Of a stretch of DNA of 43,666 nt, positions 3,070 through 31,318 are shown one piece after another. The first letter of the stretch is position 1. The number at the start of each line of letters is the position of its first letter. Position numbers and translations under genes: made by a program. Where the stretch lies: IMG/VR virus record IMGVR_UViG_3300045988_028451, positions 1 through 43,666 of that record; one strand, given 5' to 3'. The notes under the pieces are model-generated. The model made no database searches. It had not been told where the DNA came from and saw only the letters and a list, made by a program, of their open reading frames with translations. Source of the DNA: a virus (taxonomy: Duplodnaviria; Heunggongvirae; Uroviricota; Caudoviricetes).

Positions 3070-3251
3070 AACTTAATGTTGGCGATGAAATATACAGCAT
3101 ACACTCATTCAATACTTTCACCATCGAGTACATATCAAAAGACGGCAACAGCTTTGTTTTGGTAAGCTCGGACGGTAAATACGAAAAGTCACGATGCTAC
3201 ACTCTGCCGGATATAAAGCGCAGTTTCAAGAAAAGCGAAGGTAAGAAATGA
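3066..3251 (+). CDS. hypothetical protein
   Basis: ORF overlapping the helicase stop (ATGA coupling) with GAGG RBS. Confidence 0.45.
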   Translation: MKLNVGDEIYSIHSFNTFTIEYISKDGNSFVLVSSDGKYEKSRCYTLPDIKRSFKKSEGKK

Positions 3252-17820: not shown

Positions 17821-18333
17821 TTAACCCCGGTACACGTTAAACGAGAAACCATTGTTAAGACCACCACACAATAACGGGCGTAAAGCGTCGTCAGCAGCGG
17901 TAATCGCGGTCGTAGCGCCACTGTTGCCATTGTTGAAGTAGGTCACTGTTACCGCACCCTCGACACGCTCAGTCTGCACGGCGCGGCCGTCTGAGTTAGC
18001 CCGGACTTCGGTGCCCTCGCCATATGTAGCGGCAGCGATTACCTGCGCAAGAATCACCTGTTTCGGAATGGCGTTGTTGGCCACCGGGAACCCGTTTAAC
18101 GTAACGCCGGTGCGGGGGTATGCAAGAGACTGTTTGGCGGATACTCGACGACCGCACATCTGCGGTTCTGCAAGCCCTACATAAGTAGCACCGTTGCGCA
18201 AGGCCACCTCTGCTGCGGTATCGTCTGCGGGTAGCTCCAGACCATAATTAGCCGCTAACGCGCGGGCGTCAGCCAGACTAATGTAACTGTCAGCGCCAGG
18301 TACTATTGACCCATCTTCCACGATTAGCGGCAT
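17821..18333 (-). CDS. head-tail connector (gp6-like, putative)
   Basis: N-terminal LIVEDGSIVPGADSYISLADA resembles the conserved start of phage head-tail connector proteins; GGAGG RBS. Confidence 0.4.
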   Translation of the reverse strand: MPLIVEDGSIVPGADSYISLADARALAANYGLELPADDTAAEVALRNGATYVGLAEPQMCGRRVSAKQSLAYPRTGVTLNGFPVANNAIPKQVILAQVIAAATYGEGTEVRANSDGRAVQTERVEGAVTVTYFNNGNSGATTAITAADDALRPLLCGGLNNGFSFNVYRG

Positions 18334-18336
18334 GAA

Positions 18337-18516
18337 TTATTCCTCCGACTTACGGCGACGACGCTTAGTACCACCGCCGTTGTTGTGCGCTTCTTCGTTC
18401 TCCGGTTGAGTCGTAACCAGTTCATCAGCTTCTACAACACCGCGAACGGGCATCACCTGACCGTCGACAATATCAACGTGGGTGTACTTTTCGCGGATTA
18501 CATAATTATCTGCCAT
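18337..18516 (-). CDS. small protein with basic C-terminus (59 aa)
   Basis: ATG at 18516; ends with TKRRRRKSEE; not in ORF track (below size cutoff). Confidence 0.3.
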   Translation of the reverse strand: MADNYVIREKYTHVDIVDGQVMPVRGVVEADELVTTQPENEEAHNNGGGTKRRRRKSEE

Positions 18517-18552
18517 GACCTTTCCTTATTACGGCCCCGAAGGGCCGCGGTA

Positions 18553-18895
18553 TTAAGACACAGTTGCTACAGTGCTGCTGGAGATAATATTACCATACAC
18601 ATCGCGAACAACCACTTTATACGTACCGGAATCTGCGGTAGTAGTGGACGCCTTCACATAGGAATCAGCGTTCGCCCCGGCGATAGCGTTGTTGTTCTTG
18701 TACCACTGGTAGGAATACGGCTCCAGACCGCCCGTTACGGTTACCGGTCAGTGTCATGGTTCCACCTGTGGTAACGGAGGTAGTAGCCGCCAGCGCGGAA
18801 GAGAAAGACGCTGGCGAGATATTTGCCATATCGATTTTAGCACCCACGGTATCGGCGGACACACCAGTAATACGACGTTTAATTACATCAACCAT
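18553..18895 (-). CDS. Ig-like domain protein interrupted by a +1 frame change (possible pseudogene, recoding or sequencing error)
   Basis: Frame A (18895 to 18665) ends ...GGTMTLT then runs 26 more codons to a stop; frame B from about 18744 to 18556 encodes VTVTGGLEPYSYQWYKNN...DSGTYKVVVRDVYGNIISS, a clear Ig-like domain; GAGGAG RBS before ATG at 18895. Confidence 0.5.
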
Positions 18896-18906
18896 TTTTA
18901 AGCTCC

Positions 18907-19278
18907 TCAGGATGCGATGATTTTAGCGGCACGAAGTTGTGCCAGTAAGGCGTTAAGTTGAGTGCCTACCGCGTTAACCGCAGTCTGTGCGGACGTAGCA
19001 ACCGCGGCAGCCTCTTCACCCGTAACGGTCTGCGTGCCGACGTCTGTAACCGCAGCACCCTGAACGAACTTATTTCCCGCCATTGCGGTAGTCGAAGTTG
19101 TTCCGATCGCAAGGCTTGACGTACCTGCACCAATAGCGGTACGTGCCGCCTCTTGGGTCGCCCCCGCGGCGATTACCGCCGGTTTACCTGTTACTTCTTC
19201 CCAGCCTACGCTGATATCCGAGTCGCCGAAGTCAACATTCTGAAGGCTGCGCGGCAAGCCTTTTCCGGTCTTAGCCAT
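18907..19278 (-). CDS. hypothetical structural protein (Ala/Thr-rich)
   Basis: ORF immediately downstream of major capsid gene. Confidence 0.45.
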   Translation of the reverse strand: MAKTGKGLPRSLQNVDFGDSDISVGWEEVTGKPAVIAAGATQEAARTAIGAGTSSLAIGTTSTTAMAGNKFVQGAAVTDVGTQTVTGEEAAAVATSAQTAVNAVGTQLNALLAQLRAAKIIAS

Positions 19279-19337
19279 AAATTACCTCTTAGTAAATGAA
19301 AAGAGGGACCGAAGTCCCTCTCGATTATATATTAACC

Positions 19338-20387
19338 TTAAGCACCGACACCAGTTACCAGAAATGCAATCGGTACATGCTTACGATCAACAACACGGTT
19401 CCAGTTGGAGGCGTTCGCCAGGTCCTGCCAGGAGGCAGAACGTGCGACAGTCTCGGTGCCGTTGCCAGTGATTACCGCGCTGGTGAAGCTGTAGCCCAGT
19501 GGGTGCAGCAACCAGGTCTTACGGGTCCACAGGGTTTCTACCCCACCGCCGTTGCCGCGAGACGCTTCGCGCTCGTATTCCAACGGGTTGGACGGAGAAC
19601 CTTCACCGTAACCGATAGCGCCGTTACCGAAGATAATGGAGATGAACTTACGGCTAGAGCCGGTGTTGACTACGGTCATGCTGTCGTCAACAATCACGCG
19701 GTAACCCTGGTAGGTGGCGAACAGTGTGTCGTTGTCGGCGTCTTTGATGAAGTCAATAAGCTGCTGCTTACGGGCCTGCGCATAAACGAAGCTGTGCATC
19801 GCGATAGCACCCAGCACTTCTCCGCCGTTGCCCATCAGCGCATCACCCATAGTCTGGGTGGCGTCGATGAACGCACCTGCGTCGAAGCCCAGAGTAGCAG
19901 ACACGTCTACAACCATGTCATTCTGCTCGTGGTATGCGTCGGTAGCGGCTACGTTGTCATTGTACAGACCGAGCGCGGTAGCGATCAGACGGCGTTGCGC
20001 CTGGCGCTGCCAGAAGTTATCCAGACGGGACGCTACGGATTGCAGCGGGTTCTGGCTGGTCAGTTCGACAGTCAGGTCCGCCTGGCCAAAACCTTCGTTC
20101 AGGTATGCAACGCGCGCCATCATCTCGCCGGTTTGCACGTTACGCGGGGTAGCGATGTCCTGGTATACGTCGTTCGAGTAGTTAGGCTCGATAGAAGTAT
20201 CAATCGCTTTCCAGAAAGGAATGTTAGCGACGTTGGACGGGCCGCGGGCAATCTCGGCGGCGTACGGAGTAGGGGTAAGAATACCGGACTGGAAGAACGC
20301 GGTTTTTTCTACCGGGTCCTCGGTCATATAAGACGCCAGGACCGGGATGTTGCCAGTTACGATATCGCCGATAGTGGTAATTGCCAT
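19338..20387 (-). CDS. major capsid protein (putative)
   Basis: 349 aa ORF directly downstream of scaffold-like gene in portal-MuF-scaffold-capsid order. Confidence 0.65.
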   Translation of the reverse strand: MAITTIGDIVTGNIPVLASYMTEDPVEKTAFFQSGILTPTPYAAEIARGPSNVANIPFWKAIDTSIEPNYSNDVYQDIATPRNVQTGEMMARVAYLNEGFGQADLTVELTSQNPLQSVASRLDNFWQRQAQRRLIATALGLYNDNVAATDAYHEQNDMVVDVSATLGFDAGAFIDATQTMGDALMGNGGEVLGAIAMHSFVYAQARKQQLIDFIKDADNDTLFATYQGYRVIVDDSMTVVNTGSSRKFISIIFGNGAIGYGEGSPSNPLEYEREASRGNGGGVETLWTRKTWLLHPLGYSFTSAVITGNGTETVARSASWQDLANASNWNRVVDRKHVPIAFLVTGVGA

Positions 20388-20389
20388 TA

Positions 20390-21091
20390 TTATTTCCTCA
20401 GGGCTTTAAGTTGCCGTTCAAATTCGGCAGGGTTCGATTTATACAGAGCTAAACGCTCCGCTTCACTCATGTCTTTAAACGCTGGTGCGGCCCCGCCGCC
20501 TTTGCCACCGGAAGCCCCGCCGCCGGAAGCTGCATTTGCTTTAATCAAATGCGAAAACGCTTTGTGTTCGCGCAGGTATTTGCGGAACTGTTCAGGGTCA
20601 GTCGTGATTACACCGCCGTCTGGCCCAACAAACTTAGTAACCACATCATCACCTTCGAACTCAGTCTTAACGAACGGAGCAAGAATGTCTACTGCTTCCG
20701 GGGTAATAAAGTCACCTGCGAAAGAGCCTAACACCGCTTTACGTTCGCTGCCGAGGATGCGCTCAGCCATTTTGGAGATGCGACCATCTTTCTCGGCTAA
20801 CACCGGGTCATACTGGCTACGAATCGTCTTTTCGAACTCGTCCATCTTACCGGCGGCTTTTAGCGCCTCCTGGTGCGCGCGCTGACGTTCCTCTTCGGCC
20901 TCTTTTGCTTTACGGGCGGCTTCTTTCTTCTCCGCCAGCAATGCTTCCTGATTGGCCTTAAGTCCGGCAACTTCTTTCTCAATCAGCGCCTGAACTTCTT
21001 CGGCTGTGAACATTTTTGGAGCGTCGCCACCGCCAGATTTATCTTCTGCCCCAGCTTCTTCCTGGAACGGATAGTGTAAAAAACGATTCAT
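20390..21091 (-). CDS. scaffolding protein (putative)
   Basis: Charged, helix-prone (EAARKAKEAEEERQRAHQEALKAAGK) with Gly-rich tail, immediately upstream of capsid gene; ATG at 21091 (ORF track lists upstream start at 21145). Confidence 0.5.
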   Translation of the reverse strand: MNRFLHYPFQEEAGAEDKSGGGDAPKMFTAEEVQALIEKEVAGLKANQEALLAEKKEAARKAKEAEEERQRAHQEALKAAGKMDEFEKTIRSQYDPVLAEKDGRISKMAERILGSERKAVLGSFAGDFITPEAVDILAPFVKTEFEGDDVVTKFVGPDGGVITTDPEQFRKYLREHKAFSHLIKANAASGGGASGGKGGGAAPAFKDMSEAERLALYKSNPAEFERQLKALRK

Positions 21092-21669: not shown

Positions 21670-21987
21670 GTTTCCCCTTTCTCGATAAGTAAAGCCCCGC
21701 CTTAAAGCGGGGCGCTAGTCCTTATCATTTAAACATAGAAACGGCGTAATCTCAGTAAACCAGTTACTTTTTACACAAGCAATAGAGTATGGCCCTTCCG
21801 AACGCGTCAGCGTAACTACACTCAGGACTTACGTCCAGCTCCGTTACCTGCCGCGCCGCGGTCGCTTGCTCATACTTCACAAGCTCAGGTGGAGCTTATC
21901 ATATTTTTAGTGAAAAGTCAAATATTCGAATAGTTTATTCCAACATTTACAATTGAGTGGAATAACTGGAATACGTAAATAAATAGT

Positions 21988-22019
21988 TTGCGTGCACCAA
22001 CATAATAGGGTACTATTCA
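21988..22019 (+). promoter_or_regulatory. sigma70-like promoter (TTGCGT-N17-TACTAT) with embedded operator AATAGGGTACTATT
   Basis: -35 at 21988-21993, -10 at 22011-22016; GGAG RBS and ATG at 22044 downstream. Confidence 0.5.
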
Positions 22020-22043
22020 GTTAACTTAAACAGGAGATGAGAA

Positions 22044-22565
22044 ATGGTTACTACAGTAATTACTTTCCCTGCGTATGTAGGGGCGAAAATATGCAGGGCT
22101 AAAAATGATGTTCGCTACTATTTGAACGCTTTTTACATAGACCCTGAAGGATTGATAGTGTCTACGGACGGTCATAGATTGTTCTGCGACAATGTGAAGA
22201 CCAACGTTGAGAAAGGGACTCTCATAGACATCAAAGGGAGAGAGCCTTCTAAATTTAACTACGCGGAGGTAAACCACGACAACGGCAGTGTATCTTTCTA
22301 TGACGATAATCGTGCGCTTATATGTACACTTCCGGTAGATGTTGTAGAAGGAAACTTTCCTGACTGGAGACGCGTGGCGCACATCACACCGGGTGTTGTC
22401 GACAGTATAGGGTTCACCCTGCGTTATTTGGCAGACGCGTACAAGATTTCTAAGGCATACAAAAATGAAATTGCTCGTTTTGATTTCCAGGACCAAACCA
22501 GAGGATGCAAAATACAATTTTCAAACACGGCCTTTATGGTGTTAATGCCTGCGCGATTTAAATAA
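22044..22565 (+). CDS. truncated beta sliding clamp (DnaN-like) protein
   Basis: 173 aa with DVRYYLN, TDGHRL, GNFPDWRRV and C-terminal VLMPARF, which I recall as matching conserved beta-clamp segments (DVRYYLNG, ATDGHRLA, GRFPDYRRV, VVMPMRL); own promoter and terminator; opposite strand to neighbours; AT-rich by eye. Confidence 0.6.
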   Translation: MVTTVITFPAYVGAKICRAKNDVRYYLNAFYIDPEGLIVSTDGHRLFCDNVKTNVEKGTLIDIKGREPSKFNYAEVNHDNGSVSFYDDNRALICTLPVDVVEGNFPDWRRVAHITPGVVDSIGFTLRYLADAYKISKAYKNEIARFDFQDQTRGCKIQFSNTAFMVLMPARFK

Positions 22566-22569
22566 AACT

Positions 22570-22593
22570 AAGGCCCCATTATGGGGCCTTTTA
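22570..22593. terminator. bidirectional rho-independent terminator
   Basis: GGCCCC-ATTAT-GGGGCC hairpin followed by TTTTAT; between convergent genes. Confidence 0.7.
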
Positions 22594-23052
22594 TCATCCT
22601 GGTTTAGAGACCTTCGCCGCTTTGCTTACGGCCTCCGCACCATCGGCATCAGTAACTTTAACGAAGTATTCACCAGCCGCATTAACAGTCAGAGACAGAG
22701 CCTCTTCCGGGACGTTCACCACTTCCTTCCCGTCTTTGTACCAGGTCAGTACATACGGCGCTTTACCCGCCTTAACTTCGACAGTGATGGTGGCGCTACC
22801 GTCGACCAGCTCGGTGTCTTTCGGTTGCACAGAGAAATACACATCGCCAGCATCTGCCAGATACGGAATCTCATAAAGCATACCTGCCGCTGGAAGTGCA
22901 ATACCGGTTTTATCTGCAAACGGCATATCATCTACCGGCGTACCCAGTACACTTTCGTCCTCAATAAATACCACGTTCTCACCAGAGCCAAACACGCGGG
23001 CGTACTGGACTACGCGTCGCGACGGTACATCAGTTACTTTGAAAAAGCCCAT
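22594..23052 (-). CDS. Ig-like domain-containing protein (possible head decoration)
   Basis: C-terminal YVLTWYKDGKEV ... GEYFVKVTDADG resembles an Ig-like domain. Confidence 0.5.
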   Translation of the reverse strand: MGFFKVTDVPSRRVVQYARVFGSGENVVFIEDESVLGTPVDDMPFADKTGIALPAAGMLYEIPYLADAGDVYFSVQPKDTELVDGSATITVEVKAGKAPYVLTWYKDGKEVVNVPEEALSLTVNAAGEYFVKVTDADGAEAVSKAAKVSKPG

Positions 23053-23055
23053 AAA

Positions 23056-23679
23056 CTAAACCTCTTTCATTGAGTTAATCTTACGTAAGACGCCTTCGAA
23101 AAGGCGTGGGTCTATGCTATCGCAAAGACCTTTGTATTCATATGCTAATTCAATTTTTCTATGAAACCATGCTACGTGTGCCTCTTGAGCGGTTTCGTAA
23201 GCGCCTATTTGTTCAGATACGCCATCCACGGATACTTGAGCGATGAATCTTTTCTTTTGTTTATGGAAATGTACGCCGAGTGGGTGTTCGCCTCGAAGAG
23301 CGTCGTGGGCTGTTAGGAAAGTATTGAGGGATTTAGGGATGAAAACACAGTTAGAAGCATCGTAAACCTTATTTCCCGGGTTAAGTAAATCCTTATCTAT
23401 CTGCCACCCAGGTACATAAAAATCATCAAACCAGACCTTGAAATTACTGAACACCAACCAATCGTCCGACACGCGGCAACCTATATAAGTTCTGTTTCTT
23501 TGCTGCCATTTCTTGTCGTAGCACCTCTTTAACATGTTCTTCCATACGGCGTAGGACGCTATATGCACCCCTCCGCAACTTATTGGTGAAACATCGTTAA
23601 TACCCACACCAAAAACAATTCCCATATTAAACCCTATAAGAAAACCCCATGAAGATTGGTCGATGCCAGAGATAGGCAT
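23056..23679 (-). CDS. AP2-domain homing-endonuclease-like protein
   Basis: N-terminal SYAVWKNMLKRC motif shared with phage HNH-type endonucleases plus AP2-like GVHFHKQKKRFIAQVSVDG...AYETAQEAHVAW; gene is visibly more AT-rich than flanking genes. Confidence 0.55.
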   Translation of the reverse strand: MPISGIDQSSWGFLIGFNMGIVFGVGINDVSPISCGGVHIASYAVWKNMLKRCYDKKWQQRNRTYIGCRVSDDWLVFSNFKVWFDDFYVPGWQIDKDLLNPGNKVYDASNCVFIPKSLNTFLTAHDALRGEHPLGVHFHKQKKRFIAQVSVDGVSEQIGAYETAQEAHVAWFHRKIELAYEYKGLCDSIDPRLFEGVLRKINSMKEV

Positions 23680-23749
23680 ACCTTCATGGGGTTATATTCT
23701 TTCTCTATTTTTAGTAGTTCACCGACCAAAGCTAGCTACTAGATATACT

Positions 23750-24826
23750 TTATACCGACCTAAGATATTCAGCAACCCTGTTATCTAACGCCGCCATCTC
23801 CTTCAAGGTTAAAGGTCTACCAAAAGCGTCGACGGATATTACCCGGAATTCCTCTGGGGATATCCCACTATTCCTGAATATAGCACCGCGGGTAGGTCCG
23901 AGTGCTTCATCCACGAACCATGCCGGTTGCTGTTTCAGGAACTCGTAATAGGTGGTGTCCGCGCTTACCTGCATACCGCCGTCCGCACCCTTAGCCGCGC
24001 GTTTTGCGCCTTTATCGAGGAAGTCGAACTCCGAACTGATTACAGGCGCGGTGGTGCTTCGGCAATTAGGATGCGCTGGTGGCATCGGCCCTTTACCAAT
24101 TTCCCACGTCATTCCGTCTCTGGCCCTGCAAATCGTGCTGGTGCGGCTGTCCAGCGTTGACACCCACTCGTATTTCTCGATGATGTCGTCGTTCCGGCGG
24201 TACGTCTCGTTACGGGCTTCATTGGATACGTGAGACAGCGCGGTGCGGATTACGGTAGCCGCGTTACGTTCAGAGATGTCAGCCAGTCCGCCAGCGCCTA
24301 CGACATTCTTAACAATCTGTCGTGTTGTCTGACCTTGTACGAACCCCATCTTAACGCCGGTTACGAGACGTGCTACTTCGGTTTCACCCCATCCCGACAT
24401 CAGCTTAGTGAAATCAACAGGCTTGTCGCTTAATGATAAGGGTTGAAACTCGGCAGCGGACCACACCTGTTCGGCGGTAGGCGTAACAAATTCCGCATCT
24501 ACGTTGGTGGTCAGTGTCTTTACATTCCACTCGGCCTCATACGCCGCCAGTTCCATAAGGTCTTCTGTCAGCTTTGTTTGCCAATCGCCGGTAAGTCCGG
24601 TTAGCGCTTCTTCAAGGTCGAGTAACAGTTTATTCAGTCGCGCAGTGCTCCGCCCGTCGTCACCGAATAACAGCACCCGCCGTTTTATTTCGTCCCGCAT
24701 CTCCTTAATGAACGGCGCGAGGTCTTTCACCTCACCGGATGCAGTGCGTTGCAGCCATATCTGGTGGCTGATTAGAGATGTAAGTAAGCTCATAGATAAA
24801 CCCTGTGACGCTAAAGTTAATAGCAT
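23750..24826 (-). CDS. head morphogenesis protein (Mu F-like / SPP1 gp7-like)
   Basis: Conserved HPNCRST-type motif (PPAHPNCRSTTAPV) and position directly downstream of portal gene. Confidence 0.75.
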   Translation of the reverse strand: MLLTLASQGLSMSLLTSLISHQIWLQRTASGEVKDLAPFIKEMRDEIKRRVLLFGDDGRSTARLNKLLLDLEEALTGLTGDWQTKLTEDLMELAAYEAEWNVKTLTTNVDAEFVTPTAEQVWSAAEFQPLSLSDKPVDFTKLMSGWGETEVARLVTGVKMGFVQGQTTRQIVKNVVGAGGLADISERNAATVIRTALSHVSNEARNETYRRNDDIIEKYEWVSTLDSRTSTICRARDGMTWEIGKGPMPPAHPNCRSTTAPVISSEFDFLDKGAKRAAKGADGGMQVSADTTYYEFLKQQPAWFVDEALGPTRGAIFRNSGISPEEFRVISVDAFGRPLTLKEMAALDNRVAEYLRSV

Positions 24827-30279: not shown

Positions 30280-30765
30280 TCAACCTTTCACCGCGCGCCC
30301 GATAGCCTCCGCCTCCTGCCACGGCTTACCGTCGAACAGCGCAAGACGCCCGGCGGTACGGCGACGCAGACCGAGTAATGGTTTGCCGTTCTGGTTGATG
30401 AACAGCGCCAGCTTAGCCCGCAGTGTCGCAATATCACCAGAACGCAGAGCCTTACCGGTTCCGGTAGTAGCCGCAATCACACCGGCACCCGCGTTATAGA
30501 CCAGGTCACACACAGCGTCGAACTGCGCCTGTGTCAGGGAGTGGTGTGCTGCCGCATCAACCGCAGCTACGGCCTTAGCCATATCGCGATTCAGTAACAG
30601 GAGGCCTTGGCCAGGGGTGATGGTCTTACCTTCATACACATGAGGGCCATAGCTTCCGTAGCCTATGGTTAAGTATTTTTCCGAAGGTGTCGCGCGGTAG
30701 GCGGTCCCGCGGAAATCTTCCCAAGCCGCAGTAAACTTGAGGCCGTTGTCACTCATCGAGCGCAT
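30280..30765 (-). CDS. endolysin, GH24 lysozyme-like
   Basis: WEDFRGTAYR...TIGYG and LTQAQFDAVCDLVYNAG ... GLRRRTAGRLALF resemble lysozyme motifs (as in P22 gp19 / T4 e); AAGGAG RBS. Confidence 0.75.
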   Translation of the reverse strand: MRSMSDNGLKFTAAWEDFRGTAYRATPSEKYLTIGYGSYGPHVYEGKTITPGQGLLLLNRDMAKAVAAVDAAAHHSLTQAQFDAVCDLVYNAGAGVIAATTGTGKALRSGDIATLRAKLALFINQNGKPLLGLRRRTAGRLALFDGKPWQEAEAIGRAVKG

Positions 30766-31318
30766 AAAGAGAACTCCTTGTGGTATTTATCTCGGGCTTC
30801 GCTAGCTACTAACTCAGCGAACTCAAGGTCATCGAAGTAACCGAAAAACTTGCGCACACCTTTTTGCAAACGGATTCTCACCATCCATTTCCCTTGCTGT
30901 CTATGGACGCCTGATACTCCGCTGGTGTTGTTGCGCGATAACCCACGGTTGCGGTTGTTGTCCTGCGAGTCACATTCTCTCAGGTTACAAAACCTATTAT
31001 CGTCTCTTACCCCGTTCCTGTGGTCTATCTGCCCGCTGGGCCACTCTCCTGTTATATAGAACCATGCAAGCCTGTGTTGCCGTAGGTATTTACCTTTGAG
31101 CATGATTACTTTATACCTGTCCGGGTCTCTCCCGTCTGGCACAGTCCTTTAGGGGCTTTTGAACTAACCGTCTTAAGCCACGTGAATAACCCCGTGTCAG
31201 GGTTGTAATCTAAAACGCTACGAACATAGTCACGGCTAAGTTCATTATCTGAAATGTTTCGAGACACGCTTATGTCCTCCGTATGACAGCCACGCCTGTC
31301 GAATCTGACGCAGCGCAA
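30753..31318 (-). CDS. HNH-AP2 homing endonuclease gene disrupted by a -1 frame change (two ORFs 31106..31318 and 30753..31142)
   Basis: N-terminal piece has DYNPDTGLFTWLK...KAPKG; second piece in the -1 frame has KGKYLRQHRLAWFYITGEWPSGQIDHRNGVRDDNRFCNLRECDSQDNNRN (HNH) and an AP2-like domain; homologous intact proteins are contiguous. Confidence 0.55.

Follow-up and report, generated by a model that had tools for sequence, protein, structure and literature searches.

A frame-disrupted Hoc-like head decoration gene in a Kagunavirus-type phage sequence from the human gut

The split gene and its surroundings

The gene considered here lies on the minus strand in the head module of a phage sequence of 43,666 nucleotides (IMG/VR record IMGVR_UViG_3300045988_028451), and this whole stretch of DNA is called the window below. 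The window comes from a short-read assembly of a human gut metagenome, where it corresponds to the ENA contig ZELL14-1_SAMEA2467013_METAG-scaffold_569. Its best DNA matches are Escherichia coli phages of Kagunavirus and the Guernseyvirinae, and the complete genome of Escherichia phage vB_Eco_ORH_001 (hereafter ORH_001) is collinear with it nearly end to end. Judged by these matches, the window phage is an E. coli siphophage of the Kagunavirus type (Guernseyvirinae). The genes of its head module are arranged in the order major capsid protein, 123-amino-acid head-fibre-like protein, split gene, 59-amino-acid protein and head-tail adaptor, and the same order is found in the phages ORH_001, fFiEco02, fEg-Eco19, EcoPhCCP1 and phiWAO78-1.

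The split gene is preceded by a GAGGAG ribosome binding site (RBS; 18903-18908) that is located 7 nucleotides upstream of the ATG start codon at 18895. This RBS overlaps the TGA stop codon (18909-18907) of the upstream head-fibre-like gene and is identical in the relatives aligned at the DNA level. Codons 1 to 50 (18746-18895) read MVDVIKRR...TTGGTMTLT and end with the ACC at 18748-18746; they encode an N-terminal segment and the first part of an Ig-like domain. From there the zero frame continues into an out-of-frame tail of 26 codons, GNRNGRSGAVFLPVVQEQQRYRRGER, which terminates at a TGA at 18667-18665 (tail and stop codon together 18665-18745) and completes an encoded ORF of 76 amino acids at 18665-18895. 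The remainder of the Ig-like domain, codons 51 to 113 with their TAA, is found in the +1 frame at 18553-18744, where 63 codons extend from GTA at 18744-18742 through the TAA at 18555-18553 and read VTVTGGLEPYSYQWYKNN...TVATVS. The frame is broken between codon 50 (ACC) and codon 51 (GTA) by the dinucleotide GG at 18744-18745, which is a single G in every intact relative. The local context of this insertion is a tandem hexamer, ACCG[G]TA-ACCGTA-AC, at 18734-18748.

The initial annotation of this DNA had described the same RBS and start codon, 50 codons to ...GGTMTLT followed by 26 more, and a +1 frame entered at about 18744-18748 and ending at 18553. All of these elements read as it stated, and translation and the list of ORFs confirm the frames and coordinates. 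The same division is seen when the ORH_001 protein is aligned to the window by tblastn: its residues 1-41 match 18895-18773, and its residues 51-113 match 18744-18556 with 95% identity in a frame that differs from that of the N-terminal part.

Directly 3′ of the TAA of the gene is a GC-rich hairpin with a UUCG loop, CGGCCC-TTCG-GGGCCG (18532-18547), which is conserved in relatives and is annotated as 'Terminator' in the records of phages Snoke, Schulenburg and fBC-Eco01. A terminator scan of 18300-19400 did not call this hairpin because it lacks a run of T residues. There was nothing relevant to the frame break among the promoters and terminators sought in that interval, and the same scan gave a terminator-like hairpin after the capsid gene at 19322-19301.

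Identity of the joined protein and position of the break

When its two frames are joined, the gene encodes a 113-amino-acid protein that matches, with its residues 1-113, positions 1-116 of the 116 positions of the PHROG 4069 profile 'Hoc-like head decoration' (E = 1.6e-47). The joined protein is 96-97% identical to the top protein clusters, and it scores above the Pfam cut-offs for Ig_3 and Ig_2. Among the solved structures that it matches are the Ig domain of T5 pb10 (5lxk, E = 6.6e-12) and, with E = 7.7e-13, a 164-amino-acid chain (8zvi) labelled 'Decoration protein', which is taken to be T5 pb10 from that label and its length. On the strength of these profile and structure matches, the split gene is a representative of family PHROG 4069, whose product is a Hoc-like capsid decoration protein with a single Ig domain.

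Members of this family such as QNO11572.1 of fFiEco02 and XVB94908.1 of ORH_001 have 82-97% protein identity to the joined window protein and share the locus, RBS, start codon, stop codon and downstream hairpin of the window gene. However, these members are single ORFs of 111-121 codons, whereas the window copy carries an extra G and yields a truncated product of 76 amino acids. This encoded product has no significant family match in a profile search. The window copy is not a single uninterrupted ORF, since it reaches a stop after 76 codons and its Ig domain is distributed over two frames, and it is thus a disrupted allele of the PHROG 4069 gene.

A decoration role at the capsid surface is predicted from the annotation of the family and from the similarity to T5 pb10. 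The pb10 protein likewise consists of an N-terminal capsid-binding part and one exposed C-terminal Ig-like domain (5LXK, PMC5292684), and by this analogy the conserved N-terminal segment of the Kagunavirus protein is presumed to be its capsid anchor. The resemblance is limited, however, in that the N-terminal domain of pb10 is a folded alpha-helical structure of about 70 residues, whereas the non-Ig part of the Kagunavirus protein comprises about 30 residues, is predicted with low confidence and has only a putative capsid-binding function. T4 Hoc is comparable in being an accessory, dispensable capsid decoration protein with Ig domains, but it has three Ig-like domains at its N terminus and its capsid-binding part at the C terminus, and so the order is reversed (PMC5292684). 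No close sequence relationship was found between T4 Hoc and the Kagunavirus protein, for which 'Hoc-like' is an annotation label.

Among GTDB genomes, the Ig domain has its nearest non-phage relatives in the repeats of large Bacteroidota proteins (Flavobacterium, Chitinophagaceae and others; our loci L088-L118). This kinship agrees with a sub-threshold match to the Pfam family 'SprB repeat' at residues 48-68 of the joined protein. The scan of these genomes also gave one Guernseyvirinae-like contaminant contig; the remainder of its matches are Ig repeats of Bacteroidota surface proteins and have no bearing on the frame break.

The break had been placed by the initial annotation right where the Ig domain begins, and this placement is not borne out. 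The Pfam profiles Ig_3, Ig_2 and I-set align from residue 37 or 38 of the joined protein, where they are already at profile positions 8-10, and the spans are 38-108 for Ig_2 and 37-106 for I-set. The alignment with the Ig domain of T5 pb10 (5lxk) covers residues 31-108. In an AlphaFold model of modest confidence (mean pLDDT 64.9, with residues 1-39 mostly below 50), a homologue with 97% identity has strands at residues 46-49, 61-66, 79-82, 90-97 and 103-112. As located by these alignments and this model, the Ig domain starts near residue 30, the break after residue 50 is some 13-20 residues inside it, and the insertion severs the predicted first strand or strands of the Ig sandwich from the rest. 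Because the break is inside the domain, neither frame alone could give a foldable Ig module of the kind expected for a recoded add-on, and the premise of a domain boundary, from which recoding drew its appeal, is wrong.

The extra G and the question of recoding

There is only one length difference between the window gene and its nearest relatives, and this is the extra G. DNA alignment gives CTGACC-GG-TAACC in the window, CTGACC-G-TAACC in the relatives and CTGACT-G-TAACC in ORH_001. The nearest intact copy (IMG/VR UViG_3300045988_012343) is 99.1% identical over the gene, and the sole indel in the pairwise alignment is at reference nucleotide 151, which belongs to codon 51. Each of the five nearest cultured relatives has the gene as one CDS of 336-345 nucleotides.

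This contiguity extends through all of the collections searched. The joined protein was compared by tblastn with 50,697 cultured-phage records, 480 of which matched, and all 60 of the matches listed are in a single piece with 100% coverage. There are 62 Guernseyvirinae-type loci in IMG/VR that were recovered by peptide patterns able to catch frameshifted copies as well; 61 of these are intact with 113-117 codons, and the remaining one carries an amber codon. The best 120 protein clusters from a collection of 5.8 billion proteins, mostly from metagenomes, are all 111-121 amino acids in length. An exact pattern for the allele with the additional G, ACACTGACCGGTAACCGTAACGG, had no match in IMG/VR. 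The gap-tolerant pattern CCATGACACTGACN{1,4}TAACCGTAACGG recovered single-G alleles only from IMG/VR (three contigs), and its one match in the JGI metagenomes has the length of the single-G allele.

One reading of the split gene is that programmed +1 frameshifting takes place at ACC-G-GUA, such that both the 76-amino-acid protein and the 113-amino-acid decoration protein bearing the Ig domain are made. The two frames joined do give a perfect family match, and there is precedent for C-terminal Ig-like extensions produced by -1 or +1 frameshifting in other phages, namely in the capsid protein of T3, in Lactobacillus phage A2 and in Listeria phages A118, A500 and PSA (PMC5009743). The likeness to these systems is that Ig-like sequence is out of frame with the part of a phage structural gene that precedes it. 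However, the out-of-frame extension in those phages is a whole Ig module that is reached through a defined shift site and results in two products, whereas the break in the window falls within the domain rather than between modules, occurs in one strain only and is unaccompanied by a shift signal. The frame arrangement is also not conserved, being present in none of the 60 cultured-phage matches listed, none of the 62 IMG/VR loci and none of the best 120 clusters, and a relative with 99% identity is in frame. We therefore see next to no prospect that both proteins are made in this way.

The sequence at the junction likewise offers little to a shifting ribosome. The +1 frame is open only from 18746, owing to the UGA in C-UGA-CC, and because this UGA closes the frame just upstream, the junction is confined to ACC-G-GUA. 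The only possible junction (context CUG ACC G GUA) would have ACC as the P-site codon and GGU as the A-site codon. GGU is a common codon, and known +1 sites are exemplified by the CUU-UGA of prfB. Reasoning from the sequence and from general knowledge of +1 sites, we consider that the tRNA decoding ACC cannot re-pair on CCG. The junction contains neither a slippery site nor a hungry, rare or stop codon, and the RNA fold predicted for the surrounding 131 nucleotides is no better than that of shuffled sequences (z = +0.76), which indicates no stimulatory structure. The remark in the initial annotation that no obvious slippery or stalling signal is present was thus well founded. A nearby GGUGG is ordinary coding sequence that also occurs in the in-frame relatives, and the 26-residue tail of the zero frame proved unrelated to anything in the profile search.

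The initial annotation had left the choice between recoding and an indel or assembly error, and had proposed a comparison with homologues in which contiguous genes without evidence of recoding would speak against the former. The homologues are of exactly this kind, and recoding is therefore unsupported, while the suggestion of an indel or error stands. Programmed recoding is very unlikely and is effectively refuted by the contiguous homologues.

Null alleles, the origin of the insertion and other features of the window

There are nine independent lesions of the decoration gene that were verified at the DNA level, with the window included. In addition to the G gained at codon 51 in the window, these comprise the loss of G at the window's base (18744-18745) in a different strain (ENA ERZ27227884 k141_7779, 3137-3162; hereafter L008), which creates ACC-TAA and a 50-amino-acid product; the loss of a T at codon 27 (L077); the loss of a C from a CCCC run at codon 27 (L078 and L079); a 5-nucleotide deletion at codon 45 (L080 and L081); and a change of CAG to the amber codon TAG at codon 47 (IMGVR_UViG_3300045988_026856; hereafter L048, the one IMG/VR locus with an amber codon noted above). 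Three further lesions are found in named phages: a change of GAG to amber TAG at codon 40 of phage M01, with a frameshift just downstream; a 16-nucleotide deletion in Ec1-ASingh, whose record is marked UNVERIFIED; and an in-frame deletion of about 114 nucleotides in phage fBC-Eco01 that removes the Ig core. A query with the N-terminal 50 residues alone recovered 19 short products; beyond the nine verified lesions, about ten truncated products are known at the protein level only. As read from these lesions, the decoration gene has been broken many times over, in independent events, in Kagunaviruses both wild and cultured.

The Gln codon located just upstream of TMTLT has apparently turned into a stop codon in several strains. 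The change is verified in the DNA of L048, and the same conversion is suggested for protein clusters P0129, P0130 and P0133 by products that end just before this Gln. An amber codon at this position would be read as the wild-type Gln in supE (glnV) suppressor hosts.

Phage fBC-Eco01 is a plaque former with a burst size of 175 (PMC9825357). Because this phage grows without the Ig core, lytic growth does not depend on the Ig domain. T4 Hoc affects capsid stability little or not at all, and T4 particles that lack Hoc have been studied (PMC7602432, PMC5292684); the title of Ishii & Yanagida (1977), as cited in those two papers, calls Soc and Hoc 'dispensable'. Natural loss of the Ig core is in keeping with T4 Hoc, an accessory protein without a stabilising role, and with the status of capsid decoration proteins in general (PMC5292684, PMC7602432). 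Taken together, the natural null alleles and the examples of T4 Hoc and T5 pb10 suggest that the decoration gene is accessory and dispensable. The recurrent knockouts provide natural evidence of this dispensability, which is useful for hypotheses on phage display or mucus adherence.

The most likely explanation for the window, to which we assign a probability of roughly 0.65, is a real null allele in the phage DNA, with an insertion of biological origin. A one-base insertion between codons 50 and 51, by which the G at 18744/18745 becomes GG, would shift the reading frame, and ribosomes that initiate at 18895 would make 76 residues consisting of the N-terminal segment, the first strand or strands of the Ig domain and 26 nonsense residues. 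The 63 codons that encode the rest of the Ig domain would go untranslated. The result would be a loss-of-function allele of an accessory gene, in which recoding plays no part.

Alternatively, the phage in the sample has a single G and an intact gene of 113 codons, and the extra G is an artefact of consensus building for the contig. This is possible but, in our estimation, somewhat unlikely. The source is a short-read metagenome assembly, and the nearest intact copy is 99% identical, which means that the change is very recent at best. There are also three 1-nucleotide differences in G runs that set the window apart from all relatives, all of them on one strand (GG for G at 18744/5, and GG for GGG at both 21851 and 31146/7), and same-strand changes of this type could also point to a systematic consensus error. 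However, the wild-type site of the insertion is a single G rather than a homopolymer, and the identical 76-amino-acid product is called on 5-6 contigs from two sources (ENA and JGI/IMG) that represent either independent samples or re-assemblies of the same reads. Unrelated null lesions of the decoration gene in other independent assemblies and in cultured isolates further imply that real knockouts of this gene are common.

The distribution of damage in the window also bears on this choice. There are 50 other genes, amounting to about 27.3 kb, that are full-length and in frame relative to ORH_001, and the only other frame-split gene found in the window encodes an HNH homing endonuclease. Such endonuclease genes are of a dispensable type. 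Errors introduced at random into the consensus should fall mostly in essential genes, which form a far larger set. The restriction of both coding-sequence indels to dispensable gene types is instead the pattern that selection would be expected to leave, and it favours real mutation over random error. A generally error-ridden assembly was considered and rejected, as uncompensated frame-breaking indels relative to ORH_001 are limited to the decoration gene. The other indels whose length is not a multiple of three are either artefacts of alignment that occur in pairs where the sequences have diverged, or fall outside conserved genes, in intergenic DNA or at or inside small ORFs that are not conserved. 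Overall, an already known decoration gene has most likely been knocked out here by an ordinary frameshift mutation, although an assembly error is possible. Its correct annotation is a disrupted (frameshifted) Hoc-like decoration gene rather than two genes or a recoding site, and beyond this correction the finding is of little importance.

The gain and the loss of a G at the same base, in different strains and different assemblies, raise the idea that the G of codon 51 is prone to both events, and that gut phage populations turn off display of the Ig domain time and again, and perhaps restore it. The site is part of the tandem hexamer (ACCGTA twice) from which fFiEco02 has lost 6 nucleotides (GTAACC) in frame, and this repeat and loss make some local instability possible; moreover, the GG creates the palindrome ACCGGT. 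However, L008 was found through a protein cluster restricted to products truncated near residue 50, and this look-up is biased because such a cluster can hold only truncations in that vicinity. Null alleles of independent origin, about 17 besides these, are distributed along codons 26-56, and so a chance coincidence with the site of the window is not improbable (some 15-20% by our own rough estimate). A single G is also not a run prone to slippage, and an indel at the codon-51 site is found in none of the 62 IMG/VR loci. A switch of this kind is accordingly improbable in our view. That one strain has gained and another has lost this G is weak evidence, and may reflect either a local context prone to indels or coincidence. 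We give similarly little credence to a scheme in which the Ig gene of gut Kagunaviruses is recurrently turned off under selection (for instance through antibody escape or altered mucus adherence) with codon 51 as a favoured site for the gain or loss of one base, and in which a trace of corrective +1 shifting, perhaps at the downstream GGG-CGG, where CGG is a rare Arg codon, might still yield some full-length protein.

Several other features of the window were noted. The HNH homing endonuclease gene is located between the holin and endolysin genes (30753-31318, minus strand) and is split into ORFs of 70 and 129 amino acids by a 1-nucleotide deletion, GGG to GG, at 31146-31147. The gene is one CDS of 516 nucleotides in SHAK7858 and DUEC01, with 94-95% identity. 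On the plus strand, an ORF of 529 codons (19296-20885) is antisense to the major capsid and scaffold genes. The equivalent antisense ORF of ORH_001 (22885-24540 in PV656001.1) is annotated as a hypothetical protein in a record without annotated CDSs for the major capsid and scaffold proteins, which looks like an annotation error.

The region 21700-21990 (minus strand) contains a sigma-70-like promoter (TTGACT...TATGAT/GATAAG) followed by a leader that lacks a consistently conserved ORF. Short ORFs in this region fall in differing frames between strains, and the region is therefore probably non-coding. At 21851 the window has GG where GGG is present in L008, in two other related loci (L010 and L012) and in ORH_001. 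Finally, there are two segments, 21973-22570 and 23052-23763, that have no counterpart in ORH_001 and that are, by this comparison, mosaic insertions located within the head module or next to it. The second of these includes an HNH-like match (23065-23616) with 39% identity to an HNH endonuclease that is sited elsewhere in ORH_001.
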